IMG/VR virus record: IMGVR_UViG_3300012942_000032
Coordinates: 58,282 to 122,281 of that record
Direction: 5' to 3' (one strand)
Source: a virus
Taxonomy: Duplodnaviria > Heunggongvirae > Uroviricota > Caudoviricetes
Length of the DNA: 64,000 nucleotides
In this document: one piece after another, positions 12,887 through 31,460 of the stretch
How the letters are laid out: each line of letters begins with the position of its first letter
How positions within the stretch are numbered: the first letter of the stretch is position 1
The notes under the pieces: generated by a model
The model's input: the letters and a program-made list of their open reading frames with translations, nothing else
Database searches by the model: none
What the model was told of the DNA's origin: nothing
Translations under genes and position numbers: made by a program

Positions 12887-14725
12887 ATGGCTGGATTTAA
12901 AACTTCTATTCTAGACAAATCGCCAGTTCTATTTCTGACATTCGATGGAGATTCTTTCGATTCTGCTAGGCGAACTCTGACTGCGGTTCCTGCTCAGATC
13001 ATAGATGAATCTGGTCTAGGAAATAATGCTATCTTTCATGATGATGGTCTGAGTCCAGATTACTTTGGTTATAGAATGGGCATGCCATCAATGGTAGATC
13101 TAGAACCTGCCGATCAATATTCAATGTCATTTGGATATTATGGTGCTCAGCCTTTACATCCATCTATTTGGGCGAAAACATATCTAGAAGTTCCGCATGC
13201 AGATTCCTTCCAATTTCCTAATTATGGAAGTTTTTCTGTAACAGCAATGATCAATAAAGCTTCTAATGAAAATACCTTTAGAAACTATTATTCATCAAAC
13301 TGGAATACGAATACCCTTACCAGACCTATTATCAGAAAAGGTCTGGCTTTCAAATTAGATTACATTGATCCTTGGTCAGGAAATGATTATCTCCAAGTCA
13401 CCTATCCTGCAGGCACTTTGACTTGGAATGTTTACACAGATGGAACATTCTTTGGAAAGAATATGTTTGTTGCATTCTCCTGGAATGTTCAACAGCAACC
13501 TAATGGGATCTATTCTGCTACTGCAACTCTTTGGGTGAATGGAATCGTTGTCGCAACAAAGTCCCATACGTTCTTAGATACCTATCCTGCATCTAATGTT
13601 TCTAGTCCATGGGAGATTGCAGGAACTGCCGCAGCAAGCCCTAATGGTAACAATTATGATGATAGACAGACAAGTTCACTTGTTTTAGATCAAATTGCTG
13701 TCTATCAAGATCCATTGACAGATGACGATATTCTTTTCTTATTCAAGAAGATCAGAAGCTATGAGAATATGGTTATTGCTCATAGACCGTCCCAATTCTG
13801 GACACTTGGAGATCTAGAGTCTCAGACAAGTAATTCTATGGTACCTTTGGTAGGTTCCCTGACCGGAAAATATCTAGGCGGAACTGCTCGTATTCTAAGA
13901 CAGCAGACTGGTCCAACGAATATTGTCAATAGTTCAGGGACCAGATTCCAGGCAGGTGGTGTAGCAGTAGTTCACGATTCAAGTAATGATGCAAATCCAA
14001 TCTTTAATCCATCTGGTGATTATACAATTGAATTTTGGTTTACAGCCGAGAATGGTGATCAGAGTGTAATGATGTCAATGCAGTCTGACAATTATCCATT
14101 TACTGGTATGCTCATTCAAATGAATACAAAACAGGATGTGTATTCTAATGGAATGATTCAGTTTAAGGTAACAGATAGTTATACAGTGAGCACAAGGGAT
14201 CTAAAAGATGATAACATCAATAGATTCCAATTTAATGATGGCTATTGGCACCATTGCGTAGCTATTAGAAGAGGATCTAATATTGAGCTTTGGTTAGATG
14301 GCGTCCTTCATAATACCACATCTGCACCTGTAGGGACAATTGATAATTCTGGTCAGCTTTATTTGATGGGTATGATGCCTGGAGAATTGAATACGACTGG
14401 TTGTATGTCTGAATTTGTTCTTTACAATTATGCTCTTGCACCAGCAATGATCAGAGCTCATTATTCATATGCTCTGGTTTATCGTATTCATGGTCAGGTT
14501 ACCTTGCAGGGCGTTCCTTATCAAGCAAACGTCAGAGTTTATAATCATGAAAGTGGTGAGCTAATTAAGACAATTCAGTCCAATCAATCAGATGGTAATT
14601 ATCTGATTGATCTTTATGATAATTCGTTGATTGATTTGATGGTTTTAAATACACAAGATAGAAATGTGAGATATCGTGCCTATGGTCCGATTACTCCAGC
14701 AGAATATGAGGATCTACCTGCATGA
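12887..14725 (+). CDS. structural-like protein with two LamG-like domains and a C-terminal beta-sandwich (612 aa)
   Basis: LamG_3-type endings LVLDQIAVYQDPLTDDDI and MSEFVLYNYALAPAMI. Confidence 0.7.
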   Translation: MAGFKTSILDKSPVLFLTFDGDSFDSARRTLTAVPAQIIDESGLGNNAIFHDDGLSPDYFGYRMGMPSMVDLEPADQYSMSFGYYGAQPLHPSIWAKTYLEVPHADSFQFPNYGSFSVTAMINKASNENTFRNYYSSNWNTNTLTRPIIRKGLAFKLDYIDPWSGNDYLQVTYPAGTLTWNVYTDGTFFGKNMFVAFSWNVQQQPNGIYSATATLWVNGIVVATKSHTFLDTYPASNVSSPWEIAGTAAASPNGNNYDDRQTSSLVLDQIAVYQDPLTDDDILFLFKKIRSYENMVIAHRPSQFWTLGDLESQTSNSMVPLVGSLTGKYLGGTARILRQQTGPTNIVNSSGTRFQAGGVAVVHDSSNDANPIFNPSGDYTIEFWFTAENGDQSVMMSMQSDNYPFTGMLIQMNTKQDVYSNGMIQFKVTDSYTVSTRDLKDDNINRFQFNDGYWHHCVAIRRGSNIELWLDGVLHNTTSAPVGTIDNSGQLYLMGMMPGELNTTGCMSEFVLYNYALAPAMIRAHYSYALVYRIHGQVTLQGVPYQANVRVYNHESGELIKTIQSNQSDGNYLIDLYDNSLIDLMVLNTQDRNVRYRAYGPITPAEYEDLPA

Positions 14726-16982: not shown

Positions 16983-17003
16983 TAGATGATTATTCAGTCA
17001 AAA

Positions 17004-17035
17004 GAATAGGGGCGATCAAGCCCCTATTCTTTTCA
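17004..17035. terminator. bidirectional rho-independent terminator between convergent genes
   Basis: AGAATAGGGGC-gatcaa-GCCCCTATTCT, an 11-bp perfect stem flanked by AAAAG on one side and TTTTC on the other. Confidence 0.75.
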
Positions 17036-17257
17036 GACAGCAGTCAATCCGTAACGATTGCTCTTCACGAACCTTCCATTATCCTTCATCGCTTTGAGCA
17101 GTTCTGCCAAAGCTCCTTCATAGCGATGACGCACTTCAGGATAATCATCGTCGATGACTGCGACCTGATTGTGATTCTTCAGAGCCTTCGAGAATTCGTT
17201 AGCAGCAGCGAATTCCTTACTCTGAAGTTCCATTCGTTTCAGGATATCATCGCTCAT
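17033..17257 (-). CDS. hypothetical protein (74 aa)
   Basis: ORF track. Confidence 0.5.
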   Translation of the reverse strand: MSDDILKRMELQSKEFAAANEFSKALKNHNQVAVIDDDYPEVRHRYEGALAELLKAMKDNGRFVKSNRYGLTAV

Positions 17258-17259
17258 GA

Positions 17260-17544
17260 TCAGTCCTGGTGCCGATGAACGATTTGTTCGATGATGTCAC
17301 CGTACTTGGCATCCTTGGTAATCGGCATCGTGTAACTGCGAGGCACACCATTCGCTTTGGTGCCGCTCTTGATGATGCGACCTTCGACGATCTGCCGACC
17401 GCGTGCCTTGTTGAAGCGATCGCGTTCGTTGCAGACTGCGATGGCATAGGTCACCGTGTCGTCGTTCCAGTTCCGACGATAGCCGATTGTGGCACGTCGA
17501 CCGAAATCCTGACCCAGGTGGGCATACTTGATCTTGTCTTCCAT
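17260..17544 (-). CDS. hypothetical protein (94 aa)
   Basis: ORF track. Confidence 0.5.
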   Translation of the reverse strand: MEDKIKYAHLGQDFGRRATIGYRRNWNDDTVTYAIAVCNERDRFNKARGRQIVEGRIIKSGTKANGVPRSYTMPITKDAKYGDIIEQIVHRHQD

Positions 17545-17545
17545 C

Positions 17546-17710
17546 TCTACTCCTTTGTGGCGGTAACGCCGTTAAGTTGCGCCTTCACCCTTTCGATCAG
17601 CTCAGTTGTGATCTGAACTCCCACAGGGTCTTTGTTAGCCTTCTCCAACAGGCGTTTGTTGGCCAAGGCGTCTACTACATCTTCCAAAAGCTCTTTCAGA
17701 TCTTCGTTCA
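17546..17710 (-). CDS. hypothetical small protein (54 aa, MNEDLKELLEDVVDALANKRLLEK...)
   Basis: Below the ORF-track threshold but exactly fills the gap between flanking minus-strand genes. Confidence 0.4.
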
Positions 17711-17944
17711 TAGCTCATTCGACATATAGTCGCCTTTGTGAACATAGACCTTGATAAGATCATTGCCATAGGCACAGAATTGATCGAATACGAAGCAATT
17801 CTTTTTGGTTCCGTTAGTGAATTTCTTCTCCTGCCAGTAGCCTGGAATTTCTTCCATCATCTTTCCAGCAAGCGAATTACTCACTTCTGCAACCAAAGCA
17901 CCTCCTTCATGACTCCTGATGTACATCATCAATATCCTTCCCAC
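17708..17944 (-). CDS. hypothetical protein (78 aa)
   Basis: ORF track. Confidence 0.45.
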   Translation of the reverse strand: MGRILMMYIRSHEGGALVAEVSNSLAGKMMEEIPGYWQEKKFTNGTKKNCFVFDQFCAYGNDLIKVYVHKGDYMSNEL

Positions 17945-18132
17945 TGTTCATTGCAGTCTTCGCAGTCATAAGCTGCATTCAGATGAATGCCATCAGGAAC
18001 ACATCCTACGCATTTGATGTTGGTACCAGAACATCGGGGACACATCTTGCCCTTACAGACGGTATCCCTTTGGTCTTCTGTGAATGTCCACTCGCTAGGT
18101 CTACTTGGCATTTTCTCTGCACCAGGATTCAA
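17929..18132 (-). CDS. hypothetical zinc-ribbon protein (67 aa)
   Basis: CKGKMCPRC...CVGC...CEDC cysteine pairs. Confidence 0.5.
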   Translation of the reverse strand: MNPGAEKMPSRPSEWTFTEDQRDTVCKGKMCPRCSGTNIKCVGCVPDGIHLNAAYDCEDCNEQWEGY

Positions 18133-18349
18133 ATTCTTCTTGTTGACGATCGTAAATCTCTTTGATCTTGTCGTCGGATGCTTCTAGCCTATATTCAGCG
18201 AGCTTCTGACGACAATCAGAAATTGGGAGGTCGCATGCCCAACAGTGTTCTATCAATTTTTCCGCATCAGAAAGTTTCATGATGGTATCAATCGTTGGCT
18301 GTATTGCGTGCAAGTGTAGCACAACAGCGCAGGGAGTGCAAAACCGCAC
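18101..18349 (-). CDS. hypothetical protein (82 aa)
   Basis: ORF track. Confidence 0.45.
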   Translation of the reverse strand: MRFCTPCAVVLHLHAIQPTIDTIMKLSDAEKLIEHCWACDLPISDCRQKLAEYRLEASDDKIKEIYDRQQEEFESWCRENAK

Positions 18350-18370
18350 GTAGCTGGGAAAATAGTGATC
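18311..18370 (+). repeat. GC-rich intergenic repeat family member (AGCACAACAGCGCAGGGAGTGCAAAACCGCACGTAGCTGGG...GTGATC)
   Basis: Shares the AACCGCACGTAGC core with 22321-22370. Confidence 0.6.
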
Positions 18371-18378
18371 TTTTCACA

Positions 18379-18460
18379 GAAAGCGCGCTGCAAAATCAAT
18401 GACTTACACGGTGGTCAAATCAGCGATTTTTGCAGCGCGCTAACATGCGCTTTCAGTTTT
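18379..18460 (+). terminator. long GC-rich hairpin (AGCGCGCTGCAAAA...TTTTGCAGCGCGCT) with trailing T-run
   Basis: A 14-bp stem nested in an outer GAAAGCGC/GCGCTTTC stem, followed by AGTTTT. Confidence 0.45.
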
Positions 18461-18584
18461 ACCAGAACTTTCCTATGAAATGGATCACCACGCAAATCAG
18501 GCCTACGAACAGGGCGATGCACACCACAGCCCAGATCGCAGTGATCAGTTCAACCAACGTGAAACCCTTCTGGAACTTCTTCAT
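18459..18584 (-). CDS. prepilin-like (type IV pilin N-terminal motif) mini-protein, 41 aa
   Basis: MKKFQKGFTLVELITAIWAVVCIALFVGLICVVIHF carries a canonical G|FTLVEL prepilin cleavage/methylation motif plus a hydrophobic helix. It is the internal start of track ORF 18459..18680. Confidence 0.45.
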   Translation of the reverse strand: MKKFQKGFTLVELITAIWAVVCIALFVGLICVVIHFIGKFW

Positions 18585-18597
18585 TACCTGCTCCTGA

Positions 18598-18810
18598 TTA
18601 CGAAAAACGCCCTTTCGGACGGTTGTCAAGGGAAACCTGATGTTTCTTAGCCTTCCCAAAATTGAAGAATCGACGGCCATCTTCCGTGTAGTACCTGGTT
18701 CCAGTCTTGTCCTTCCTGAACATCATTCCATGGGGAAGACCTTTGTTGCCGAAGGTCACTTCCATCTTCACGTTCAGGATATTGAGGGTGGTACGGAACT
18801 GGCGCGTCAT
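18598..18810 (-). CDS. hypothetical basic protein (70 aa)
   Basis: ORF track; preferred over the overlapping 18647..18877 frame. Confidence 0.4.
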   Translation of the reverse strand: MTRQFRTTLNILNVKMEVTFGNKGLPHGMMFRKDKTGTRYYTEDGRRFFNFGKAKKHQVSLDNRPKGRFS

Positions 18811-19022
18811 GAGATAAAGCTCTCGATGCTGATTTCGACGCCGTCGCTGTTCTTGAACTTCTCACCACGATGAACAATGGTGTAGACTGCGCCCCTGATG
18901 TTCAGGTTCTTGAGAAACCCTTCCAACATCTCACCTGCCGCGTCCGCACCTTCCCTCATGTACTTGGCGACAAAGTTCTGCGAAGTCGCATTCTTGTCGG
19001 GAATCTCGATCGTTATTTTCAT
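18807..19022 (-). CDS. hypothetical protein (71 aa)
   Basis: ORF track. Confidence 0.45.
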   Translation of the reverse strand: MKITIEIPDKNATSQNFVAKYMREGADAAGEMLEGFLKNLNIRGAVYTIVHRGEKFKNSDGVEISIESFIS

Positions 19023-19053
19023 TTCTTGCCCCTGTTAAATCGGAAAGGCTATC

Positions 19054-19302
19054 TTATCGCTCTGGCATCAAATTGATTTGGAGCGATTTCTGTACGAAAC
19101 TCTGATCATCGATCATTTCAACCATTTTCTTAGGATCGCAGTGATCAAGATAATCGTCGAAAGGATCAAGAACACTTCCTGCACATCCATCCCACACGAT
19201 GTTAGGATTGTGTGCAGCAACCCAACCTAAGGCACCTACTATCACCCTCAGTTGGTTCTCGGTCATCCTGACCTCTACGATTTCGTTTCTGATATCACTC
19301 AT
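19054..19302 (-). CDS. hypothetical protein (82 aa; internal start MSDIRNEIVEV...)
   Basis: Track ORF 19054..19542. The N-terminal extension overlaps the neighbouring gene in another frame. Confidence 0.45.
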   Translation of the reverse strand: MSDIRNEIVEVRMTENQLRVIVGALGWVAAHNPNIVWDGCAGSVLDPFDDYLDHCDPKKMVEMIDDQSFVQKSLQINLMPER

Positions 19303-19735
19303 CTTCTTCGGTCTCTTCGCTCGCAGTCCACACGAAGGAAGGCCAGTAGACGATGTAGTCTCGGCCCAGGTTGTCGTAACGTGCCCCTGTGATTCCGAAT
19401 TGAGCAGCCCGCTCGATGATCTTGATGGGATCTTCCCCAGAGATGCCGTAGCAGCGTTCACCGTACATGCACCTGCCGGAATAACCCTCATAGATCGAAA
19501 CATCTTCCGCGTCTCCTTGAAGCGACTCCACCACCTCATCAAAAAGGTTCTTGATGAAATCCTTGTTTTCCTTTTCGTCGCTCCTGGAAATCCGCCTCAG
19601 ACCATGAGTAAGATGGTCGATGCTGTTCTGTATCTCGTCTTTCGACTCTTCCAGCTCTTCAAGAAACTCCACGGCTTGCACCTCGCGTTGTTTTGCCCAT
19701 GCGTTTATAATAACGCAATGCAAGCGTGGAGTCAA
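19295..19735 (-). CDS. hypothetical acidic protein (146 aa)
   Basis: ORF track. Confidence 0.5.
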   Translation of the reverse strand: MTPRLHCVIINAWAKQREVQAVEFLEELEESKDEIQNSIDHLTHGLRRISRSDEKENKDFIKNLFDEVVESLQGDAEDVSIYEGYSGRCMYGERCYGISGEDPIKIIERAAQFGITGARYDNLGRDYIVYWPSFVWTASEETEEDE

Positions 19736-19764
19736 GTGAAGAAGTTAATTATCAGTGATATACG

Positions 19765-19986
19765 TCACTGATTCTTCTGATCGTATTCTTCCACGATTTT
19801 CTTGATCGTTTGCAGGTGCTGACCTTGGGAATAATATAGGTCGCCAGAAGTCTTGAAGACTAGATCACGAGTCTCCAAAGAACGCATCGTTGCGGGAAGA
19901 ACATCAAGTTCAGAGATCGACCTGGGGGTATTGTCGATCTTGCGGAGGGCTTCGATTTGAAGCTCGGTGAGGGGTTTAGCAGCCAT
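19765..19986 (-). CDS. hypothetical protein (73 aa)
   Basis: ORF track. Confidence 0.45.
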   Translation of the reverse strand: MAAKPLTELQIEALRKIDNTPRSISELDVLPATMRSLETRDLVFKTSGDLYYSQGQHLQTIKKIVEEYDQKNQ

Positions 19987-20161
19987 GACACATCTCCAGT
20001 GATAAGATACCCTTCCAAGGAGGGTACGTCCTTCCCCTGTTTTGAGATGTTATTGGTATCGGGGAAACTGGATGCGCTTCTTGATAACGAAGAAGAGGCC
20101 AACCAGGTCAAGAACCAAGACAGCATAAATCGCAATCAGAAGCGCATCCATTGACTTTCTC

Positions 20162-20485
20162 CTACTTGACAGCCTCGAGCAAGGAAGGAGCAACCTTCCA
20201 ATTCATGCCATTCTCTGCCTTGACCTGCACCGTCTTAGCATTGATCTTCTGAACGGTGCCACGAACATGCATCTGCTTCTTGGCAGAATAGAACATGACA
20301 CGATCATTGACCTTGAAGAGCTTGGCGGTCTGGTACTGCAAAGAGTTCCAGCGCTCCTTGATGGCGGCATTGATCTGAGTAAGATCGTCCGTCGTCATAC
20401 TATTGGTGCGATCGAGGATGGTGTTGACAATCTGAGAAGTATTCATGAAACACCTTTGGTTTGGATGAAGGTTGTTGGGCTCCAC
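20162..20485 (-). CDS. hypothetical protein (107 aa)
   Basis: ORF track. Confidence 0.45.
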   Translation of the reverse strand: MEPNNLHPNQRCFMNTSQIVNTILDRTNSMTTDDLTQINAAIKERWNSLQYQTAKLFKVNDRVMFYSAKKQMHVRGTVQKINAKTVQVKAENGMNWKVAPSLLEAVK

Positions 20486-20530
20486 CTATAAGCAAGTGTA
20501 ACGCAAACAAGCGAAGATAAAAAGAAATTT

Positions 20531-20779
20531 CTAAGAGTTATGATCAATCCTTGAGGCGACCATAGCCCTTGCTGTCGCCTCGTCTGCATTGTAAAGCTTG
20601 TCGCAGAAGAAACGATCTTGTCGGCACTTCTCCAGCTTCATGTATGAATAGAAGGCCTGACCCCAACGCAGAGCTGTATTCCTGTGCCTGAACGCATCCA
20701 CGCGACTCTTAGGGAACATGAGCATGATCTGCTCCTTTGATTTCTTCCGTGACACGAACCAGATCTTCCAGAGTGACAT
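20531..20779 (-). CDS. hypothetical protein (82 aa)
   Basis: ORF track. Confidence 0.4.
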   Translation of the reverse strand: MSLWKIWFVSRKKSKEQIMLMFPKSRVDAFRHRNTALRWGQAFYSYMKLEKCRQDRFFCDKLYNADEATARAMVASRIDHNS

Positions 20780-21038
20780 CCAAGAAGAAGACGATACCTC
20801 GATTCCATGTTCTGGTGTACTTGCCCATGAAGTTTTCCAGGGTCAGAGGATCAACCTTCTTCAGATCTTCTGGTGTGATTGCAAACGAATGGACAGTCTT
20901 GCTTTTGAGGATGCTTCCCACCAGATGAACGATATCAGGAAGAGCAATGTCATAGGTGTCAGACACAGGGTAGTGAGCAGCCTTGAAAGAGACGCACATA
21001 TCCTTCAGTTTGGCAACGATGTCATCTTGCAGACTCAT
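20709..21038 (-). CDS. hypothetical protein (about 109 aa, start MSLQDD...)
   Basis: Track ORF 20709..21065, with the internal start preferred. Confidence 0.45.
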   Translation of the reverse strand: MSLQDDIVAKLKDMCVSFKAAHYPVSDTYDIALPDIVHLVGSILKSKTVHSFAITPEDLKKVDPLTLENFMGKYTRTWNRGIVFFLDVTLEDLVRVTEEIKGADHAHVP

Positions 21039-21241
21039 GATCTTCTCCTTACTGTTCCGTACCATTGATTGTCATGAAAACTGATCGAACCTATTAGAGG
21101 ATGACCTTCAGAGTCCTTTCCTTCCCAGTGTGCCTTGACGGGTTCCAGACCTTGATCCCGTAAGAACAGACGAACGTACTGAAGATTATCATCCTTGTAT
21201 TCTATGATTCCATTCTTTTTGACTACACCTAAGAAAGGCAC
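21035..21241 (-). CDS. hypothetical protein (68 aa)
   Basis: ORF track. Confidence 0.45.
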   Translation of the reverse strand: MPFLGVVKKNGIIEYKDDNLQYVRLFLRDQGLEPVKAHWEGKDSEGHPLIGSISFHDNQWYGTVRRRS

Positions 21242-21492
21242 TCGACTCTCCCCAACCTATTCATCAGCCGCGCAGACTTCGGTTCGTGCTTCGCGGTATT
21301 GATGGAACAGATTGTGAAGTCATTCCTGTGGAGCAACCTTCCAAGACGGTTCTCAATGCAATGCACGCAGAGCATTCCAATCTTGGTCGTGACAACAGAT
21401 AACCAAACCTCATCCTTAAGGTAATAGTGTTCGTAGATCTTTCCTGTATCAACTTTGCAATCCAGACACAGGAACTTAGACCTAGATTTCAT
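21229..21492 (-). CDS. hypothetical zinc-finger protein (87 aa)
   Basis: CLDC...CVHC cysteine pairs. Confidence 0.45.
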   Translation of the reverse strand: MKSRSKFLCLDCKVDTGKIYEHYYLKDEVWLSVVTTKIGMLCVHCIENRLGRLLHRNDFTICSINTAKHEPKSARLMNRLGRVECLS

Positions 21493-21625
21493 TTCTTGTC
21501 TTCCTTGCCAGGACAGGGAGCATTCATTGCCTTAGACGTGGCAGAGTTCTTCAGATTGATCAGACCACAGCGTCCACAGAACATGAAAGACATCTTGTGA
21601 GTGATCTTGAACCAGATATGACTTT

Positions 21626-21892
21626 TCATTTGACAATCCTGCTGTTCATGGCAACCATTTCTTGCACCAGAAGAAGATCAAAGTCGTCTGTCGTAGGGGC
21701 AGCCGCAATGACATTGAAACCGTGTTTCGTGAGGTAGTTGGCAGCAGTGACCACCATATCACGTGCCTCATAGTCGAAGGGGATTGTGATGCGATCACCA
21801 GGATGTCTGCATGAATACATCCTGATCCGCGCTCCTCGTTTGGAAGTAGGACCAATCTTCTTTACTTTGATCGCATGAAGATTAGGAAACAT
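21626..21892 (-). CDS. hypothetical protein (88 aa)
   Basis: ORF track. Confidence 0.45.
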   Translation of the reverse strand: MFPNLHAIKVKKIGPTSKRGARIRMYSCRHPGDRITIPFDYEARDMVVTAANYLTKHGFNVIAAAPTTDDFDLLLVQEMVAMNSRIVK

Positions 21893-21903
21893 TCTTTCTC
21901 CCC

Positions 21904-22212
21904 TTATTCTGGAATTTTGATCTTCACAGAATGATCATTGAAGTCGACAGTCATCAGGATGTCCCACTCATCCTCAAACGGAATGATGTAAGGATCTTCA
22001 TCCATCATGACCAACTCAATCACTTTGCAACCAGGTTCCCACTTCCAATTCGGCGCCCAGTGAGCCCAATCAAATTTGATAGCATCCAGGATGCAGCTTC
22101 CAAGACATCTTTCTTCCTTCAGCACCCAGGTATTCTTCTCGGGATAGGATTCTTTGATACAATCCTTGCCGAAAATCCTTTCTATCAGATCTCTACCGTA
22201 CATGGCGTGCAC
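21904..22212 (-). CDS. hypothetical Trp-rich protein (102 aa)
   Basis: ORF track. Confidence 0.45.
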   Translation of the reverse strand: MHAMYGRDLIERIFGKDCIKESYPEKNTWVLKEERCLGSCILDAIKFDWAHWAPNWKWEPGCKVIELVMMDEDPYIIPFEDEWDILMTVDFNDHSVKIKIPE

Positions 22213-22320
22213 CTGCTTGCCTGTTATCCATGCTTTATACTAACATGATCCATTATGGAATAGCAACTGAAGATTTAGACTATCTGTGATATAGATCTTC
22301 TGTTAGAATCTTCAATACTT

Positions 22321-22370
22321 TGCACACTAGCAGCACACAATCCCTGCAGAACCGCACGTAGCAGGATGAT
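22321..22370 (+). repeat. GC-rich intergenic repeat family member (TAGCAGCACACAATCCCTGCAGAACCGCACGTAGCAGGATGATC)
   Basis: See the repeat-family finding. Confidence 0.6.
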
Positions 22371-22465
22371 CGTCTCCAAATGTTTACAAAAGCGCATTAC
22401 AAAACAACGACTTGCGCTGACAATAGTCATGAAAATGCGCGCACAAAATGCACGCGCAGTTCCTG

Positions 22466-22696
22466 TTAATTCGTTTTCAGATCAGCAAGCTTGGCGAGGA
22501 ACTCGATCTCTTGCCTTCCTTGTTTCTTCAACCAGTCCAGAGTGCGACGATGATTGGACGGAATAGCTCTGGCGGCAGGACGACCACGATAGGTATATTT
22601 GTACTCCGCATCTTTCAGAGTACCATCCGCATGATACCATGCCCTGCATTTCTCCCAGGCAAGCATGAAGCTTCCGTCTTGGAAGTTAACCTTCAT
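22466..22696 (-). CDS. hypothetical protein (76 aa)
   Basis: ORF track. Confidence 0.45.
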   Translation of the reverse strand: MKVNFQDGSFMLAWEKCRAWYHADGTLKDAEYKYTYRGRPAARAIPSNHRRTLDWLKKQGRQEIEFLAKLADLKTN

Positions 22697-23010
22697 TAGT
22701 TCCTTCCTCGAGGAGCATTGATCAGGTTGCGCACCTCCTGGATGGCAAGGATATCGACGAGGTAATCCAGATCAATGCTGACGTGCGTCATTTCTACAAC
22801 GTCAACCAAGATCAGAACAGACTTCTCTTCCAGATGAAGCTCTGTGGCGCGCATATCATCCAGAAAGATTTCCAGACGAGCAGCAACCATAGCGGTCAAC
22901 ATCTGTTCAGACGACACGTTTTCCATTATTATTTGCTCCTTGAGGGCAACAAAGACCTCAGGTGAATGATTGCTTCTTCCCTGATAACGAATTCCCTTAC
23001 GGTGAACCAC
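22696..23010 (-). CDS. hypothetical protein (104 aa)
   Basis: ORF track. Confidence 0.4.
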   Translation of the reverse strand: MVHRKGIRYQGRSNHSPEVFVALKEQIIMENVSSEQMLTAMVAARLEIFLDDMRATELHLEEKSVLILVDVVEMTHVSIDLDYLVDILAIQEVRNLINAPRGRN

Positions 23011-23144
23011 TTCTTCGAAAGGAGTCGATCCAGAGAGGAATGAGTGATCAGACCATCCGTCTCCTCCTTGATCTGTTCGATGTCATCCTCGACTTCATCT
23101 TCCGTTACCCTGAAGTGGAGACCCTGAGGAGTGATATTGATCAT
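22929..23144 (-). CDS. hypothetical acidic protein (71 aa)
   Basis: ORF track. Confidence 0.4.
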   Translation of the reverse strand: MINITPQGLHFRVTEDEVEDDIEQIKEETDGLITHSSLDRLLSKKWFTVREFVIREEAIIHLRSLLPSRSK

Positions 23145-23488
23145 TTCAGATCCTCCTCAAGAAGGTTGATGGCCAGGAGTTCCAGAGAACGTTCTTCTTC
23201 AGACCAGAGGTGTGGGAAGCTCGTCACATGGTTGCGAAGTGCCTGGAGATCCTCCTTCTGATAGTCGGTGCCCAGAACATCAATGGCGATCTCCTGAGCC
23301 CTTTCCAGAACCTCGATCTGTGAGTTCACAAGCATCTGGTCGAGGAGTTCCCTGGCAGCATCCATATGAACACTCACTGAATGACTCCGGAAACACGGAA
23401 CCAGAAGATGCAGCTTACCACTGCCCACATGAAAGCAATGAAGCCCCAGCGGTTGAGGAGTCGACGACAGTCCCGATTGAACCGCCAT
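23141..23488 (-). CDS. hypothetical protein (115 aa)
   Basis: ORF track. Confidence 0.45.
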   Translation of the reverse strand: MAVQSGLSSTPQPLGLHCFHVGSGKLHLLVPCFRSHSVSVHMDAARELLDQMLVNSQIEVLERAQEIAIDVLGTDYQKEDLQALRNHVTSFPHLWSEEERSLELLAINLLEEDLK

Positions 23489-23521
23489 TGGAAACGAACA
23501 AAACCAGTGCGACGAATCATG

Positions 23522-23728
23522 TCAGCTGATCCTCTTGATGTAGATGTCCTGATCGTGCCCCACAAGCATCTCCTGCCCTGCTTGCAGATCAGCGATCAGA
23601 TCGACTTCTGATTCCGAGTAGTCAGTCATCTCGAACACCTGCTGGAGCGAGAGACCACAGTCTCGGCGATTGACTGTACCACCAGACCGATCTTCCATCG
23701 TGTAGCGTTTCATAAACAGATACCTCAC
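23522..23728 (-). CDS. hypothetical protein (68 aa)
   Basis: ORF track. Confidence 0.4.
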   Translation of the reverse strand: MRYLFMKRYTMEDRSGGTVNRRDCGLSLQQVFEMTDYSESEVDLIADLQAGQEMLVGHDQDIYIKRIS

Positions 23729-23997
23729 TCGCTGATATCAATCATCAGAGGAACATCTTCTTCCTCAAAGTAATCAGAGACATCGCCCCAGGTAACCTGA
23801 ACAGCAATGTTCTCCACCAGTTCCTGCTTGATCGCTGTCCGATCGTCAACCCTGACACACATCGTCTCCGGCAGTCCATCAACCTTCAGTTCCGCCTGCA
23901 AGAGATCGTAGATGACAGCCAGTTGGGCTTCCGTCAGACGCAGATCATATACCTTGTTCATGTTCGTGCCCCTACTTGTAACGCATCCTGAAGCCAA
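23725..23997 (-). CDS. hypothetical protein (90 aa)
   Basis: ORF track. Confidence 0.45.
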   Translation of the reverse strand: MASGCVTSRGTNMNKVYDLRLTEAQLAVIYDLLQAELKVDGLPETMCVRVDDRTAIKQELVENIAVQVTWGDVSDYFEEEDVPLMIDISE

Positions 23998-24235
23998 GTG
24001 CTTCTACACACTCGGACATAGAAATCGAATCACAAAAGCCCTGGAACCGACCCTCCGCCCTGCTCGCATACCACTTGAACACAACATCGGAAATGTATCC
24101 CTGAGAAACAGCAGCCTGTGTTACCAGCGCCACCTGAATCCCATCCTCGAGCAAGTACGCCTTACCCTTCCCTACATTTTCGATCGTATAGTTCATGTCT
24201 ACCTCAAGAAGCGGATTGCCTACAACGTATCCCAT
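23972..24235 (-). CDS. hypothetical protein (87 aa)
   Basis: ORF track. Confidence 0.45.
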   Translation of the reverse strand: MGYVVGNPLLEVDMNYTIENVGKGKAYLLEDGIQVALVTQAAVSQGYISDVVFKWYASRAEGRFQGFCDSISMSECVEALGFRMRYK

Positions 24236-24835
24236 GCGCTTATACTAGCACACAAGCAAAAGAAAGCAAGTGAAGATTTGAACTATCGTAGAACTCTGTC
24301 TAACTTACTTCGTCTAACTTACTTCTTAGGTACCTTACTCAGTTCAGATCTCCGAACACGAAGAGCTTTCCCATCACAAAAGATCGCCGCCCAACCCGGC
24401 TCCTTAAACTTCATACCCTGAATGACCTCGACCTTCCGCCCCTGATACATCTTCATCACCAACCGTGCCATACCCCATCACCTCCTGTAGTCCTGTGTCA
24501 ACATATGATGCAGTTCCTCCGCAATAGATAACAGAGCAAGCGCATTAGCATCTAACTTTTTCTCAAATGCCTTCTCTTTCATCTTAAACAACTTCTTCCG
24601 CAACACATGAAGCTGACGAACTTTCCGTTCCTGTAAGTCCATAACCACTCCCTCGCCCTAAAAGGTAAAGACATACTAAAAGAACATTCAGAAGAAAGCA
24701 AATAGAATCTAAGAAGTATCGTAGACACAATACTACACAAGCCCAGCACCAATATAGAACCTACGATGTAACGCGCTATAACAGCGCACAAGCAACGCGC
24801 ATCCCAACAGCAATACAGCAGCACACCCTTATACC

Positions 24836-24864
24836 TCCCTGCGCTTGTAGCGCGTTATAAAAGC
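24836..24864 (+). repeat. 29-bp direct repeat copy 1 (TCCCTGCGCTTGTAGCGCGTTATAAAAGC)
   Basis: Repeated at 26256-26284 with one mismatch; contains a GCGC-ttgta-GCGC mini-hairpin. Confidence 0.7.
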
Positions 24865-25229
24865 TCTCCAGTTTCGTCTGCAACTCACTCCGTCTTCACT
24901 ACGCTCGATTCTGCTTCGTCTACAACAATAGAATACGATCATTTATATTGCATTCATTGATAACGATCAAAAGGTCAGAAAGTGATGAAGATGGTCAAAA
25001 TTATATGATCTGTTCTCCTGACGTGCCACTCAAAAGAAAAGGAGCACAAAGGCCCCTAAGGAGTAGGTGTGGTGTGATACTACAAGGAGAGGAGTGAGAA
25101 GCAACAGGACTTAGATCATACACTAAGAGTGGTGTTGTGATCAGACCAAAGGTGCTATGGGTTCAGAAGTGGAACCAATCAGGCGACGATCACCAAGCTC
25201 ACCAAAGCTATCCTTTCTAAGAACCCAGT

Positions 25230-25595
25230 CTAGCCTTCCTCTCCAAACATCAGATCATAGAAGCGTTGCCAGTCACACTCCGCGAAGGTGGTGAGCTTAC
25301 ATTGTTTCATGCAACCAACAGGAGTGAGTACAACGTAGGAGATCAGGTCTGCCATACGTGCGAGCATTTCGTCCTTGTTGTGTACTATCTGATCAGGAGC
25401 ATGCTCGTAGGTAAAGGTGAGGAATCGATCTTGTTCTTCAGGAGAGGTGAAGGTGATAAAGGTCATAGCACCTCTGCCATCGTTGTGTATCTCTGCGACC
25501 TTTTTGTTGTTGCGGGTGAGGTGGTAGCGATAGGCGATCCCATTCCGAGTTTCCATATCGGAGTAGGAGGCGATTGAGTAGCCGTTAGTGATCAT
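25230..25595 (-). CDS. hypothetical protein (121 aa), elevated GC
   Basis: ORF track; translationally coupled (ATGA) to the upstream gene. Confidence 0.5.
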   Translation of the reverse strand: MITNGYSIASYSDMETRNGIAYRYHLTRNNKKVAEIHNDGRGAMTFITFTSPEEQDRFLTFTYEHAPDQIVHNKDEMLARMADLISYVVLTPVGCMKQCKLTTFAECDWQRFYDLMFGEEG

Positions 25596-25789
25596 AGGAC
25601 GAAGGAGAAGATGTGGTTGTCGGAGTTGGTGGGAGTCTGGAGAACATCCCCGAACATTTTGATCAGTAGATCGTTGGAGCAGGAATCGGGATCAGCTTCT
25701 GTTTCGGGAATAGGAGCCTGAGAGGAATTGGAGAGCGCGTGCATGAGGACAGCGATCTGATTGGAGGACAGGCGGATGTTGTAGTTCAT
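25592..25789 (-). CDS. hypothetical small protein (65 aa, start MNYNIRL...)
   Basis: Track ORF 25592..25825; AAGAGG lies upstream of the internal ATG. Confidence 0.4.
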   Translation of the reverse strand: MNYNIRLSSNQIAVLMHALSNSSQAPIPETEADPDSCSNDLLIKMFGDVLQTPTNSDNHIFSFVL

Positions 25790-25803
25790 GTGACCATTAC
25801 CTC

Positions 25804-26023
25804 TTAGGAGTGGAAGGCGTGCCAAGCGCCAGTGATGTAGGAGATGGTACCGACGATCTCCACACCTTCATAAAGATCGTCCTCTGAGAAGGAGCGCATA
25901 GCTCCTGTTTGGATAGCTTTCAAATCTTCAGGAGTGAGGTCTTTGATAGAGGTGACATTGAAACGCTCCAGATACCACTTCACACCGTCTTCGATGTTTT
26001 TGCGTACATCATGCAGGAAAGTC
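25804..26023 (-). CDS. hypothetical small protein (73 aa, start MTFLHDV...)
   Basis: Track ORF 25804..26106; AAGAGG RBS 7 nt upstream of the internal ATG. Confidence 0.45.
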
Positions 26024-26255
26024 ATTCTATTGCCTCTTAGGTGTGCATTGGGAGCATTGCGTCCCTGTATGCACATACTAGCACGCTGCGCACACAGGGC
26101 AAGCATTACATGCGATCTGCATCTATGAAAGTTTAGGAGTAGGTGGTGTGCTGCTATGCGCGGGAGCGTGCTAGTGTACGTGGTGCCTTAGACGCACGCT
26201 GCGCCCGTATAAGCGCGTCCCTGCCGTCCCGTGTGCTAGTGTAGTCCCGTACAGT

Positions 26256-26284
26256 TCCCTGCGCTTGTAGCGCGTTACAAAAGC
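26256..26284 (+). repeat. 29-bp direct repeat copy 2 (TCCCTGCGCTTGTAGCGCGTTACAAAAGC)
   Basis: See copy 1. Confidence 0.7.
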
Positions 26285-26409
26285 CCTTCAGTTCCACTTC
26301 CAAAGAGGAGTAGGAGCACATACGAGGAGGGCAAGGTGGTGCTGAAATAGAGGTGGCAAGAAAGGGAGCATCTCTGCTCCCGATCCTGCTTGCTTGTTGT
26401 GCTGCCGTA

Positions 26410-26913
26410 TTACGCTTCGGCGGACTCGGTCTTCGGAAGCGAACGTGCCGTCTTCAGACCCAGGTTGGCCAGCACCTCGTTCTTGTCGATCTTGCTCACG
26501 TCCCCGATGAAGCGCACGTTGCGGCCGCTCTTCTCGAAGTCTTTCGCGTACAGCTTCCGGATGGTCTGCATCATGCGCACCTTGCGCCCCGCCTTCCACT
26601 CGGTGAGCGTGTCGCCGGCCTGCAGCGCCTGGATGGCCATGTCGAAGACCACGTCGTACTCGGGGTTCTTCGTGCGCTCGGTCTGCTCCGCCGCTTCCTG
26701 CTTGGGAGCTTCCGCTTCCGGCTTGCTGAACGTGACCGTCAAGCTGTTCTCGCCGGCTTCGAACGAGGCACCTTCGAGCTGCTCCAGCGCCTTCTGCGCT
26801 TCGGCGGGATCGACCTTGCTGATCTTGTAGCCGTCGTCGCCGTGCTTGCGCACGCGGTCGAAGGACACGTTGCTGGACTTGAGGTTGGTGCTGATGTCGG
26901 TGGTGGTGTACAT
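26410..26913 (-). CDS. hypothetical protein (167 aa) encoded in a DNA segment of about 62% GC
   Basis: AAGGAG RBS 7 nt upstream. Third-position GC is strongly elevated and unlike the rest of the phage. The overlapping plus-strand ORFs are antisense artefacts. Confidence 0.65.
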   Translation of the reverse strand: MYTTTDISTNLKSSNVSFDRVRKHGDDGYKISKVDPAEAQKALEQLEGASFEAGENSLTVTFSKPEAEAPKQEAAEQTERTKNPEYDVVFDMAIQALQAGDTLTEWKAGRKVRMMQTIRKLYAKDFEKSGRNVRFIGDVSKIDKNEVLANLGLKTARSLPKTESAEA

Positions 26914-26998
26914 GGTGTTATCTCCTTTGCGTGCTAGGGCGGAATTGCCCTTGCTTAGTTGGGGGAAGTTAGCGCGTTGCTCCCTGTCCCTTATGCTT

Positions 26999-27026
26999 AG
27001 TATACGTCTGCGCTTTTGCAGGGCAA
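26999..27026 (-). promoter_or_regulatory. candidate sigma70 promoter (TTGCCC-16-TATACT) for the GC-rich gene
   Basis: Seen on the reverse complement about 80 nt upstream of the ATG at 26913. Confidence 0.4.
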
Positions 27027-27168
27027 GCGTTTTTTTGAACTTTTATAGGCGCGTTCAGCTTGCGTTTAGGAAAGCTTTTGCGTGCGCAGTTTGTAACGAA
27101 CGCGCACGCGCATAACACAAACGCGCTAGGGCTGTCAACGGTTCTCCAAAAAATAATTTTTGCAAGAC

Positions 27169-27197
27169 TTGACACGCCGTTTGCTTTATGCTATGCG
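27169..27197 (+). promoter_or_regulatory. candidate promoter TTGACA-17-TATGCG, preceded by GCAAGACTTGAC
   Basis: Exact -35; weak -10. Confidence 0.35.
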
Positions 27198-27246
27198 CTA
27201 GAAGCCGGGGCAAGGCACTAACACAAAACAGAGGGCAACGCAAGAC

Positions 27247-27275
27247 TTGACGGGAGGGATGCGGCATGCTATACT
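27247..27275 (+). promoter_or_regulatory. strong candidate promoter TTGACG-17-TATACT, preceded by GCAAGACTTGAC
   Basis: Near-consensus -35/-10 with a 17-nt spacer; second copy of the GCAAGACTTGAC box. Confidence 0.55.
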
Positions 27276-27344
27276 AGGCGACCCCCCTGATGGATGTAGA
27301 TCTTGGTCTGAAGCTACAATACCGCCTTAAGGGCCAAGCCATCT

Positions 27345-27530
27345 TTGACTCGCTTCCAATATCACTATGTTCATTCCCAGTATCACTTCTAGAAATATTG
27401 ACTCGCTCCCAATTTACTAGAAAACAGTTACCCGGATCAATACTGGTTTTGACTCGCTCCCAATTTCACTATGTTCATTCCCAATTTACTAGAAGGGGCT
27501 TCGCCTACTCGCAAACAGTTACCCGAGGCT
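27345..27530 (+). repeat. array of three about 50-bp direct repeats, each starting TTGACTCGCTYCC and containing 11-bp CCCAATTTCAC-type sub-repeats (iteron-like)
   Basis: TTGACTCGCT at 27345, 27398 and 27449. Five CCCA(A/G)T(A/T)T(C)AC boxes, some about 20 bp apart. AAACAGTTACCCG(G/A)(A/G) occurs twice. Confidence 0.6.
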
Positions 27531-27565
27531 TTTACAAAATCTGGTATAAAATTTCCAGAATGTAG

Positions 27566-27784
27566 CTACTCCCCAGCTAACCTGATATCAGTTCCCAGCG
27601 GTCCGTATCTACGATTGAGATAAATTTTCAGCTCTACTTTCTTCTCGTCCAAAATCTTAATCGCAGCTACAATATCCTCTGTAGACTTTCCCTTAGTAAA
27701 CTGATGCACACAATCATTAAGCAGATGTCTGAACTTTGATAGTTTCATAACATAATCGTTAGTGATAAGCAAATACAATAACAC
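27566..27784 (-). CDS. hypothetical protein (72 aa)
   Basis: ORF track. Confidence 0.45.
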   Translation of the reverse strand: MLLYLLITNDYVMKLSKFRHLLNDCVHQFTKGKSTEDIVAAIKILDEKKVELKIYLNRRYGPLGTDIRLAGE

Positions 27785-27816
27785 ATATATTATTCAGAGA
27801 TTTAAAATATCTTCTG

Positions 27817-28083
27817 TCATACTATTGTTATTCTCTTTTGAGCATTCTTGGGAAACAGGGCCGCGGACTCAAGTTCATCCATATCAATAAAGGTATCTGC
27901 CTGGACAGGTTTTCCATTGATATGAAGTGCCTGGTTCTTTATCCAACGAGCAAGCTCAGAGTTGGAGGCAACCTGCTTGGGATTTTCTTTTGACCAGAAT
28001 CCAGGGGATCGGAAATTATGAACAGTTCGGAGCCATTGAAGAGCTTTCATCTTGGGTGCCTCCCTGAGGAATAAACAGACCAT
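27817..28083 (-). CDS. hypothetical protein, possible S4-like RNA-binding fold (about 88 aa)
   Basis: ELARWIKNQALHINGKPVQ is a weak S4-domain resemblance. Confidence 0.35.
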   Translation of the reverse strand: MVCLFLREAPKMKALQWLRTVHNFRSPGFWSKENPKQVASNSELARWIKNQALHINGKPVQADTFIDMDELESAALFPKNAQKRITIV

Positions 28084-28243
28084 GGGCATATCTAAAACCT
28101 GCAATGAACGTGCTCAGATGTCTCTGATAATCGTTCCTCAGGTGCAGCTTAGAACCTTCAGAACATTCGAGTTCCTCGATACCAGCTGCACTTAAATTAT
28201 AAAACCTTTCAAAGGCTTCTACAAGTTTATCATAGGCTTCCAT
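28016..28243 (-). CDS. hypothetical protein (75 aa)
   Basis: ORF track. Confidence 0.4.
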   Translation of the reverse strand: MEAYDKLVEAFERFYNLSAAGIEELECSEGSKLHLRNDYQRHLSTFIAGFRYAHGLFIPQGGTQDESSSMAPNCS

Positions 28244-28256
28244 TGTATGAACTCTC

Positions 28257-28487
28257 TTAGATCTTTACAGGAAACTGATCTTGGTTAATTGTGATTGGTT
28301 TATGATTCGGCTCTTGAATCTTATGGAACAAGGTTGGTACAAATGGAGCAAAGATCTTTCCTTCTCTGATTACAATGATTGAGTAGTTCCAATCTTGACC
28401 ATCGAAGATTGCTCCAATATACAGACCATCGTTCTTAGGCTTTGTTGATGTCCAGAATTGCATGATGTTTACACCGTATAGAAACAA
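28257..28487 (-). CDS. hypothetical protein (76 aa)
   Basis: ORF track. Confidence 0.45.
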   Translation of the reverse strand: MFLYGVNIMQFWTSTKPKNDGLYIGAIFDGQDWNYSIIVIREGKIFAPFVPTLFHKIQEPNHKPITINQDQFPVKI

Positions 28488-28654
28488 TTTTCTAAGATAT
28501 AGTTGATCAGAGCATCTCTGGCATCCTGAGCCTCAGAAACATACTTGCCCCAAGACTTGTCTGAACAAAGTTGGTCGTGTCTGGCACTCTGCCTATCTTG
28601 GATCTTATACTCAAAAATCTGAATAAGATCTTCTAATGTAGTTTGACTAAGCAT
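28469..28654 (-). CDS. hypothetical protein (61 aa)
   Basis: ORF track. Confidence 0.4.
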   Translation of the reverse strand: MLSQTTLEDLIQIFEYKIQDRQSARHDQLCSDKSWGKYVSEAQDARDALINYILENCFYTV

Positions 28655-28952
28655 CTTTCCACCTGAGAATCTTGAAAATTGATTTGATCTTTTGAAAGAA
28701 TCCGTTTACAGGAGTTCCATGATCTTTAGAAGAATGAATATCGTCCATCCAGGCATTTCGCGCTTTCAGCGCCCGCTCAATTCTTTCAACTGACCAAGTC
28801 TTGCAGTTTTCAGGAACATCATGATTGCTGTAGACTGTTTTCCAGACAGGGAAATCTCCATGATTCTCAACTTCTAAGAACTTATGGTCATCAAAAATGC
28901 TGAATTGCCTCAGACCATATTTTCCATCTGCAAACTTAACGATCTTAGCCAT
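28647..28952 (-). CDS. hypothetical protein (101 aa); paralog of 29221..29541
   Basis: Shared N-terminus MAKIVKFADGKYGLR / MKLVSFNNGFWGLR. Confidence 0.5.
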   Translation of the reverse strand: MAKIVKFADGKYGLRQFSIFDDHKFLEVENHGDFPVWKTVYSNHDVPENCKTWSVERIERALKARNAWMDDIHSSKDHGTPVNGFFQKIKSIFKILRWKDA

Positions 28953-29202
28953 TTTGGAAGGCCTTACGTGCTTTATCTGCTCTGGATAAAATCGGAGGAA
29001 CTTTGGTACGAATAGATTCGAAAAGTTCGATCAAACCCTTCTCATAAGGTTGCATATAAGACTTTCCCAGATGATCGTAGAATACTTTCAGGAAGCTTTC
29101 GTGTCCGTATCCAACAAGTGCATCTAGGGCTCGCAATTCCTGTTCGTTAAAAGTCATCGTTGCTGAGACTTCAACCTTAGGTTGCTGAGTAATCTGAGCC
29201 AT
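28945..29202 (-). CDS. hypothetical protein (85 aa)
   Basis: ORF track. Confidence 0.45.
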   Translation of the reverse strand: MAQITQQPKVEVSATMTFNEQELRALDALVGYGHESFLKVFYDHLGKSYMQPYEKGLIELFESIRTKVPPILSRADKARKAFQNG

Positions 29203-29220
29203 TTAGCTACAATCCCCTAG

Positions 29221-29541
29221 TTAAGCTGCTTTACCAACGAGTTTCGCCAGACGATTACGAATTTTCTCGCAGAACCCTGGCAGCACAACATCTTGAACTT
29301 TGCCGTATTTGTTCTTCTTACTATCTTCGATATTTTGCTTCGTTTCCTGATATCGCTCAACAGATCTACGAACTGTATCTTCAGGAAACTGGCAATCAGC
29401 AAAATGATAATCACTTCTGGCACGCCAATTAAGTGCACCACTCTTTAGATCTACAAGATCAAGATATTGATAGAGACCTGGAATACAAAGAACATTCCGA
29501 CGAAGTCCCCAGAAACCATTATTGAAGCTGACAAGTTTCAT
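29221..29541 (-). CDS. hypothetical protein (106 aa); paralog of 28647..28952
   Basis: See above. Confidence 0.5.
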   Translation of the reverse strand: MKLVSFNNGFWGLRRNVLCIPGLYQYLDLVDLKSGALNWRARSDYHFADCQFPEDTVRRSVERYQETKQNIEDSKKNKYGKVQDVVLPGFCEKIRNRLAKLVGKAA

Positions 29542-29593
29542 TCTATTTCCTAAAAGAAGGGAGTAGAGAAAACTCTACTCCCTTATGCCGATA

Positions 29594-29836
29594 TTAAAGA
29601 TCGTCCGAATACTCAAGAGTCTCAATTGCGCTCTCAAGAGAGGAACTTACTTCCTGCCAAGCACTTACATTCTCTTGATAGACTTCAATCTCAGCTTCTG
29701 CTTCTTCGATCTTGGTATCAAGCTCTTCCTTCTTGGCGCGCAGATCATCAAGCAGATCCTGGCGGAAAGACTTCGCAATCTTAATTAGACGTCCCATTAT
29801 TATCTCCTGTATTCCTGATATTTGTGACAATGACAA
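29594..29836 (-). CDS. hypothetical coiled-coil protein (80 aa)
   Basis: ORF track. Confidence 0.45.
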   Translation of the reverse strand: MSLSQISGIQEIIMGRLIKIAKSFRQDLLDDLRAKKEELDTKIEEAEAEIEVYQENVSAWQEVSSSLESAIETLEYSDDL

Positions 29837-30881: not shown

Positions 30882-30960
30882 AATGTATCCTTCAAAATTG
30901 TTTCTTATGGTTAAATTCTAGCACAGCCTAAGTGGTTTGTCTATATCAAACACAATAGCT

Positions 30961-31406: not shown

Positions 31407-31460
31407 AAATCACCTAAAAAGAAAGGGGATCGATGGATCCCCTTTCTGGGATGTTTCAGA

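Follow-up and report, generated by a model that had tools for sequence, protein, structure and literature searches.

Does a 41-aa open reading frame (ORF) that begins like a type IV prepilin and consists of little more than one helix represent a genuine phage gene and, if so, what might a phage do with such a peptide? The question is raised by the minus strand of a 64,000-nucleotide stretch of DNA from a tailed phage (the window), in which the original prediction had described a minimal prepilin-like peptide with nothing following its helix, either interfering with type IV pili or type II secretion or serving as a membrane-anchored peptide. The window gene is a real and conserved phage gene, whose 41-aa product has a basic leader, a long helix with an alpha1-N start and an HFIxKFW end. 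It belongs to a phage-restricted family of single-helix peptides of 27-55 aa that is defined by HFIxKFW and of which roughly a quarter are prepilin-type.

The position predicted for the ORF proved exact, and the ribosome-binding site (RBS), two assemblies and the homologues all agree on it. On the minus strand, window 18459-18584 begins with ATG AAG AAG TTC CAG AAG GGT TTC ACG TTG GTT GAA and ends with TTC TGG TAA, and its translation is MKKFQKG followed by FTLVELITAIWAVVCIALFVGLICVVIHFIGKFW. The gene starts 14 nt past the stop of a preceding 70-aa gene, which lies at 18598-18600, immediately 5′ of the AGGAG of the peptide gene (Table 1); no relatives of the 70-aa protein were found in a search of related loci. 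The possibility had been raised that the true start is the upstream ATG of a 73-aa ORF, so that the leader would be internal. This longer alternative, from 18680, is disfavoured because it overlaps the 70-aa gene, and homologues in other phages have an in-frame stop directly 5′ of the equivalent Met, which makes the short leader the true N-terminus. An identical gene is present in two independent public assemblies (ENA ERZ27256360, a 110,955-bp contig, and Logan SRR6958704), in both of which the 41-aa form was the choice of the gene callers.

The peptide gene is the final member of a run of small genes and is followed by a strong hairpin with a minimum free energy of -38.2 kcal/mol (z = -3.96), as stable as which none of 200 shuffles folded; this structure is likely a transcript end or stabiliser. 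The smaller hairpin on the other side of the gene is, by its sequence, a possible attenuating terminator. In the region 17929-18349 (minus strand), just downstream of the peptide gene, public gene calls leave approximately 530 nt gene-free, and two plausible small ORFs were noted inside this gap: a Cys-rich, zinc-ribbon-like ORF at 17929-18132 (minus strand; ...CPRCSGTNIKCVGC...CEDCNEQW) and a second one with an internal ATG start (MKLSDAEKLIEHCWACDL...).

Table 1. Features of the peptide gene and its flanks (window positions).
Feature	Position	Strand	Basis
Coding sequence, 41-aa peptide MKKFQKGFTLVELITAIWAVVCIALFVGLICVVIHFIGKFW plus TAA	18459..18584	-	ORF list, sequence
Class III (prepilin-type) leader M1-G7, MKKFQKG, net charge +3	18564..18584	-	TIGR02532 score
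Hydrophobic helix F8-I34	18483..18563	-	Profile versus pilins, AF2, hydropathy
C-terminal motif H35-F-I-G-K39-F-W41, protein end	18462..18482	-	Alignments, IMG/VR scan
Shine-Dalgarno AGGAG, 6 nt 5′ of the peptide ATG (18584)	18591..18595	-	Read from sequence
Strong RNA hairpin, about 10 nt past the peptide stop, then UUUCU	18375..18449	-	Folding versus shuffles
Small GC hairpin plus T-run (putative), overlapping the 3′ end of the 70-aa gene, just before the peptide RBS	18608..18621	-	Consensus scan

All elements of a prepilin signature are present in the window peptide, namely a short basic leader ending in Gly (-1), Phe at +1 and Glu at +5 (MKKFQKG, then FTLVE), and a cut by prepilin peptidase after G7 is predicted. 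The start of the helix (F8 to about F26/V27, approximately 19-20 residues) matches alpha1-N of type IV pilins, including T9 (+2) and E12 (+5). The peptide scores 17.0 bits with the NCBIfam prepilin domain TIGR02532 (cut-off 16.3) and 19.6 bits with Pfam N_methyl (PF07963), which is below the GA of 21.2, whereas relatives exceed this GA with 29.3, 24.6 and 22.1 bits; 29.3 bits is the score of an ORF in Aeromonas phage vB_AdhS_TS3 (OP820700.1, 7483-7596, plus strand). For an estimate of chance, the core motif was written as G[FYLIVM][ST][LT][LIVP]E with a hydrophobic tail after it. A six-frame translation of the window contains it a single time, against 0.01 expected from block shuffles; with an additional Met and basic leader it appeared in 0 of 300 shuffles, and the chance expectation for a combined DNA pattern of leader and C-terminus was 0.00. 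AF2, run with the subfamily alignment, returned one continuous helix over residues 10-40 (pLDDT 91), and the mean hydropathy of the helix is 2.7. The mature peptide would be a 34-aa chain that is helix throughout in the AF2 model, with neither an alpha1-C nor a head domain. No polytopic ORF resembling a prepilin peptidase was found in the window, so that any processing would depend on a host enzyme.

A word-indexed protein search with the single peptide returned only the peptide itself, and the orphan status that this suggested was overturned by an exhaustive HMMER search of 1.84 billion representatives, which yielded 47 more sequences, nearly all of 37-46 aa and aligned end to end. A profile search then gave about 120 clusters at 90% identity, which disposes of the earlier proviso that the peptide might not be conserved in relatives, and full-length homologues form more than 150 clusters. 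In an alignment of 80 clusters that are no more than about 40-59% identical to the window peptide, T9 (+2), E12 (+5), H35, K39 and W41 are invariant, and conservation reaches at least 90% at G7 (-1), F36 and I37. The leader, G-1, F+1 and E+5 that had been pointed out at the outset are therefore real and, as judged from the alignments, under purifying selection, which thus acts on the very positions of importance to prepilin peptidase and to the assembly of pilins. Among 121 prepilin-type members, the leader (Gly included) has 6-7 residues in 86, with a mean net charge of +2.3; position +1 is occupied by F in 102 members and by Y in 16, every member has T at +2, and the distance from G-1 to the His is 28 residues (a mature length of 34 aa) in 102. 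Lineages with a decayed motif, carrying Ala at -1 or lacking Glu +5, are also present.

When the subfamily profile (alignment A1) was compared with solved structures in the PDB, it matched MshA (6.6e-5), Geobacter PilA-N (Geopilin domain 1; 1e-4) and PilA (5.7e-4), and these pilin matches are confined to positions 1-27, that is, to the leader and the first 19-20 or so mature residues. By this comparison of profiles, the N-terminal half is truly pilin-like and the remainder is not. The shortest pilin matched among the solved structures was the Geobacter PilA-N chain, with 69 residues as deposited; the mature form of this pilin has about 61 aa.

What follows the pilin-like part is the better conserved end of the peptide. 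The statement that nothing else follows the helix did not hold, because an invariant C-terminal H..K.W (HFIxKFW) follows it. A scan of IMG/VR with a DNA pattern for HFIxKFW plus stop, in which the pilin motif was not required, revealed at least 119 loci. Among the IMG/VR matches listed, a hydrophobic helix directly precedes the motif in 85 of 117 ORFs, many of the others being shorter versions of the same combination of helix and motif, and only 21 of the 85 helix-bearing members (approximately 25%) have a prepilin motif. The codons of HFIxKFW vary freely at synonymous sites (CAC 48 versus CAT 33, AAG 42 versus AAA 39, and all three stops are used), which implies that selection acts on the protein. 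We define the HFIxKFW family as phage-borne proteins of about 27-55 aa that end in H-F-[IV]-x-K-[FY]-W right before the stop and have a single hydrophobic helix directly before this motif. The window peptide fits this definition, being phage-borne and ending in HFIGKFW-TAA after its single helix. The H, K and W of the motif are invariant in alignments A1 and A3, and an aromatic residue (Y, W or F) is usual four positions before the His, where the window peptide shows a minor departure in having Cys.

In the N4-like Stenotrophomonas phage C121, gp12 (MTFRTVFIMWLVWVAIILSVAGAGLYVAWHFISKFW) is a member that lacks the pilin motif, as is an ORF from an uncultured phage of 462 kb, and non-prepilin members carry a plain basic stub as their anchor. 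Across the family, the positive-inside signal is weak, with a mean K+R of 1.6 in the N-flank versus 1.2 in the C-terminal seven residues. As far as form can be read from sequence, the window peptide is not a truncated pilin but a chimera, which starts with a pilin leader and alpha1-N and continues with the helix end and tail that characterise HFIxKFW peptides. Because only 21 of the 85 listed members carry it, the pilin leader is probably an accessory that one subfamily carries, and any effector activity would probably reside in the helix end with its tail.

In Pfam, PHROGs, NCBIfam, PADLOC and the PDB sequences, no model or chain was found to cover the C-terminal motif. A precomputed DUF7248 tag on one member was rejected as a sub-threshold N-terminal match, and the NCBI label of the Burkholderia copies refers to a generic prepilin domain only. 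Literature searches for the motif strings of the family, as well as for PF07963 in phages, found nothing relevant. The HFIxKFW family is thus undescribed in any library or paper searched, and it is because the proteins are so short that a family of hundreds has been missed by word-indexed searches as well as by Pfam, PHROGs and PADLOC.

That the peptide is phage-encoded was borne out by its distribution. In addition to the IMG/VR loci, the prepilin-type pattern was detected in four of 185,579 species genomes (two of Paraburkholderia and two metagenome-assembled), and the one of these matches that was examined, in Paraburkholderia panacisoli, lies inside a lambdoid prophage; on plasmids the pattern was not found. 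Its near-absence from bacterial genomes and its absence from plasmids indicate a phage family and not a host pilus component. All eight contexts that were examined in detail are phage or prophage. The family is spread over many unrelated types of phages (T4-like, T5-like, N4-like, jumbo and lambdoid), where its genes occupy blocks of small genes. In lambdoid prophages of Burkholderia glumae and P. panacisoli, the gene is 1-1.3 kb downstream of a CI-type repressor gene on the same strand and precedes RecT/YqaJ and integrase genes, at the head of the early-left operon. In the T5-like phage TS3, the member ORF lies 7.5 kb from the left end of the genome; this ORF, a clear match, is unannotated in the published genome. 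The gene is found 3.1 kb from the left end in the N4-like phage C121, among tRNA genes and small ORFs in the T4-like Aeromonas phage Ahp1, and in small-ORF blocks on contigs of 82, 353 and 497 kb. By analogy with the model phages T5, N4, T4 and lambda, these loci would be regions of early, host-directed genes. In the contexts examined, family genes were never located in lysis cassettes, and neither pil nor gsp neighbours were found. When the ORFs up to 2.5 kb away from each of 118 family loci were clustered, no partner gene emerged that is common beyond closely related contigs.

The window itself is part of a T4-like myovirus, with genes for a baseplate wedge, a sheath and a large terminase. 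The terminase shares 62% identity with its counterparts in YB07, Mendera and IME-SM1, three T4-like phages of Stenotrophomonas, and a 612-aa structural protein is 44% identical to its counterparts in Xanthomonas phages BUDD/X1 and 39% to that of Acidovorax phage ACP17. A megablast search with 4 kb around the peptide gene found no match among phage genomes. The gene lies inside a block of approximately 15 kb of small minus-strand ORFs (about 17-33 kb). This block (about 17000-33000, minus strand), which separates tail-fibre-like from baseplate genes, has no database matches, is richer in G+C than the flanking structural modules (0.43-0.51 versus 0.36-0.41) and is absent from the corresponding place in Xanthomonas phage X1. 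Several other features of the window were noted. A permuted (two-piece) tmRNA is present at 401-1914 (minus strand), with a match to Rfam RF04321 of 63.7 bits (GA 47) at 1648-1884; its tag peptide is given by ARAGORN as AKTKNVAANDDVYAVALAA, and it adjoins genes for tRNA-Leu(taa), tRNA-Val(tac) and tRNA-Leu(tag). Such permuted forms occur typically in alphaproteobacteria, some betaproteobacteria and cyanobacteria, and this one may hint at the host of the phage. A match to the abiF RNA motif RF03085 (59673-59709, plus strand; 39.4 bits, just over the gathering score of 37) directly follows an ORF at 59103-59660 near the tail sheath gene, and an ORF of 1931 aa (46111-51906, plus strand) belongs to the baseplate/tail-fibre region.

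What, then, might the peptide do? The more cautious suggestion made at the outset, a membrane-anchored peptide, was correct as far as it goes and is too weak as a description. Our preferred reading, which we put forward tentatively, is that it acts in the inner membrane as a decoy of the pilin N-terminus, is cut by the prepilin peptidase of the host, and disturbs type IV pili or type II secretion with superinfection exclusion as the result. The peptide would insert N-in/C-out into the host inner membrane, where a host prepilin peptidase (PilD/GspO type) would remove MKKFQKG and N-methylate Phe8, leaving a 34-residue membrane helix that resembles a pilin without its head. Such a headless pilin could enter the pilin pathway and dock, via E+5 and its N-terminus, on pilins or on the assembly platform; alternatively, pilin-sensing kinases might read it as a full pilin pool, and the prepilin peptidase itself is a further candidate contact. 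The HFIxKFW end would provide a specific contact at the periplasmic face. Type IV pili, or the pseudopili of type II secretion, would be lost or altered soon after infection or in the lysogen, and superinfecting phages that depend on pili would thereby be excluded. For the host of this phage, PilD and pili are assumed by extension from what the hosts of its relatives possess.

A pilin-type interaction is favoured because a Glu buried in the membrane is costly and yet strictly kept, and anchoring alone is hard to credit because G-1, T+2, E+5 and the mature length are fixed while other members anchor by a basic stub. Against the decoy count the approximately 75% of the listed family without the prepilin motif, C121 gp12 included, and the decayed lineages; if all members share one function, prepilin peptidase could not be required for it. 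In addition, the most conserved part of the peptide is its C-terminus, only about 19 mature residues are pilin-like, the Pfam score is below GA and the positive-inside signal is weak.

Several phage-encoded or host peptides offer points of comparison. Prophage copies of FimU (P-FimU) block phages that use the pilus tip, and virulent Pseudomonas phages carry headless, truncated PilA genes of 60 aa with a putative function (Sztanko et al. 2026, PMC12952977). With P-FimU, P-PilA and the truncated PilA, the window peptide shares its phage origin, a canonical T4a prepilin leader with alpha1-N and a proposed role in protection against pilus-dependent phages. P-FimU is a full-size functional minor pilin (PMC12952977), whereas the window peptide has 34 aa when mature and is pilin-like over about 19 residues. 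Unlike the phage-encoded pilin homologues, its family is moreover mostly without the pilin motif. Pseudomonas phage Epa18 gp22 (MKKEKGFTLTEAMIVLAILGILASILVDGKSS...), which likely falls into the truncated-PilA group of PMC12952977, has a charged soluble tail and lacks the HFIxKFW of the window peptide, and its match to the window peptide, like that of its relatives, is limited to query residues 1-27.

Unrelated pilin-like genes are common in phages: they include 59-aa ORFs in Epa18-like Pseudomonas phages, "pilin" genes in Synechococcus phage ACG-2014f, one in Acinetobacter phage Acibel004, and "type IV pilus subunit" genes in the Xanthomonas jumbo phages PhiXhv-12/15/16. An 82-aa truncated type IVa pilin gene with two Cys is also present in Xanthomonas phages X1 (OQ427096.1, 12586-12831) and BUDD (ON758385.1, 76660-76905), the nearest cultured relatives, where it is annotated as hypothetical and lies about 0.8 kb from a homologue of window ORF 12887-14725. 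Its product is of a different family from the window peptide, and its presence implies that pilin mimicry recurs in the clade.

PfsE (PA0721) of the Pseudomonas filamentous phage Pf4 is a 30-aa, N-in peptide that blocks pili by binding PilC, and in this superinfection exclusion protein an aromatic cluster is conserved and the C-terminus must be free (PMC8764522). Both PfsE and the window peptide are tiny phage peptides with a single helix in the inner membrane, a likeness that is architectural only. PfsE has YAWGW (as given in PMC8764522) in place of HFIxKFW, shows no sequence similarity and lacks a prepilin leader; furthermore, its binding to PilC is experimental (PMC8764522), whereas any such contact of the HFIxKFW family would be putative. 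In Caulobacter, the CIP peptide is sensed by PleC, and a 17-residue pilin helix alone cuts susceptibility to PhiCbK by 77% (PMC7196804). The alpha1-N helix of a headless pilin thus suffices there for sensing in the inner membrane and shuts down both pilus function and susceptibility to pilus phage. PilA of P. aeruginosa is reportedly sensed by PilS (Kilmury & Burrows 2016, as cited in PMC6058289). CIP and this PilA differ from the window peptide in being host pilins or synthetic fragments and not the product of a virus-encoded gene. Geobacter PilA-N and the Flp pilins are, like the window peptide, very short and essentially all-helix with a class III signal, yet they are about twice its mature length, belong to host pilus loci and polymerise. 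Flp pilins have a different leader and peptidase. The precedents of P-FimU, PfsE and CIP make the idea of pilus interference a reasonable one.

Other explanations have to be weighed against the decoy. A chance ORF with a chance motif might be suspected from the very short length and the Pfam score below GA; we give this reading practically no weight, and it is refuted by conservation, given full-length homologues in more than 150 clusters, synonymous variation beside amino-acid invariance, an RBS, a position directly after the preceding gene and a shuffle expectation of at most 0.01. The canonical leader, F+1, E+5 and the pilin-like alpha1-N would equally suit a true minor pilin or pseudopilin with a structural role, one built into a host filament by polymerisation. 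This is very improbable, since 34 mature residues fall short of the approximately 50-60 needed to polymerise, alpha1-C and head are absent and even the shortest solved pilin matched (the PilA-N chain) is much longer; such a peptide would disappear into the core of the filament and have no part left to grip the adjacent subunits, and the gene is absent from host pilus loci. Very small, very hydrophobic single helices with an aromatic and basic end are often toxic, and the peptide could on these grounds perturb the bilayer without binding a specific protein, as a holin- or antiholin-like, type-I-toxin-like or depolarising agent of membrane damage or lysis. We consider this improbable in view of the early or immunity-proximal location of the genes, never in lysis cassettes, and of their stable carriage beside the repressor gene in prophages; the invariant H, K and W and the fixed length argue for a specific contact, and no match to a holin family was found in Pfam or PHROGs.

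A stronger competitor, quite possible in our estimation and weighing almost as much as the decoy reading, is a generic HFIxKFW membrane effector that is unrelated to pili, whose transmembrane helix and motif would bind another host target in the inner membrane or facing the periplasm, such as a DNA-entry route, a protease or a sensor. In that case, the class III leader would be just one of several interchangeable N-terminal modules for insertion or anchoring, which perhaps gives peptidase-dependent activation or turnover. Such an effector would agree with the combination of an invariant C-terminal motif and a freely varying N-terminus, with the pilin motif in 21 of the 85 listed members and the existence of decayed intermediates, and with the lack of a conserved neighbour or any pil/gsp link. 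Small early phage membrane proteins, of which T4 Imm and HK97 gp15 are examples, also commonly block DNA entry. What a generic effector leaves unexplained is a 13-residue pilin signature with a buried Glu that has been kept invariant across about 120 diverged clusters, together with the fixed mature length of 34 aa, when a plain basic stub already anchors other members.

In its broadest form, the pilin-pathway reading would make the HFIxKFW peptides new and widespread early micro-proteins of phages that act in the inner membrane on pilin processing or assembly, be it on the peptidase, the platform or a kinase; stated for the whole family, this is doubtful. If it is true, the prepilin-type subfamily would comprise, to our knowledge, the first virus-encoded non-pilin substrates or pseudo-substrates of prepilin peptidase, and a headless pilin of 34 residues would be a general viral off-switch for pili or type II secretion, used by T4-like, T5-like, jumbo and lambdoid phages alike. 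Type IV pili are major phage receptors as well as virulence factors, and the phage pilus blockers known to date (Tip, Aqs1, PfsE and P-FimU) come almost entirely from Pseudomonas. Should the pilus reading hold, the idea of such blockers would extend to many types of phages and hosts, with Aeromonas, Burkholderia and Stenotrophomonas documented among the latter. The family would then supply a natural peptide of 34-40 residues that can be synthesised and tested, and with it a clean test of a pilin N-terminal helix acting alone in the membrane.
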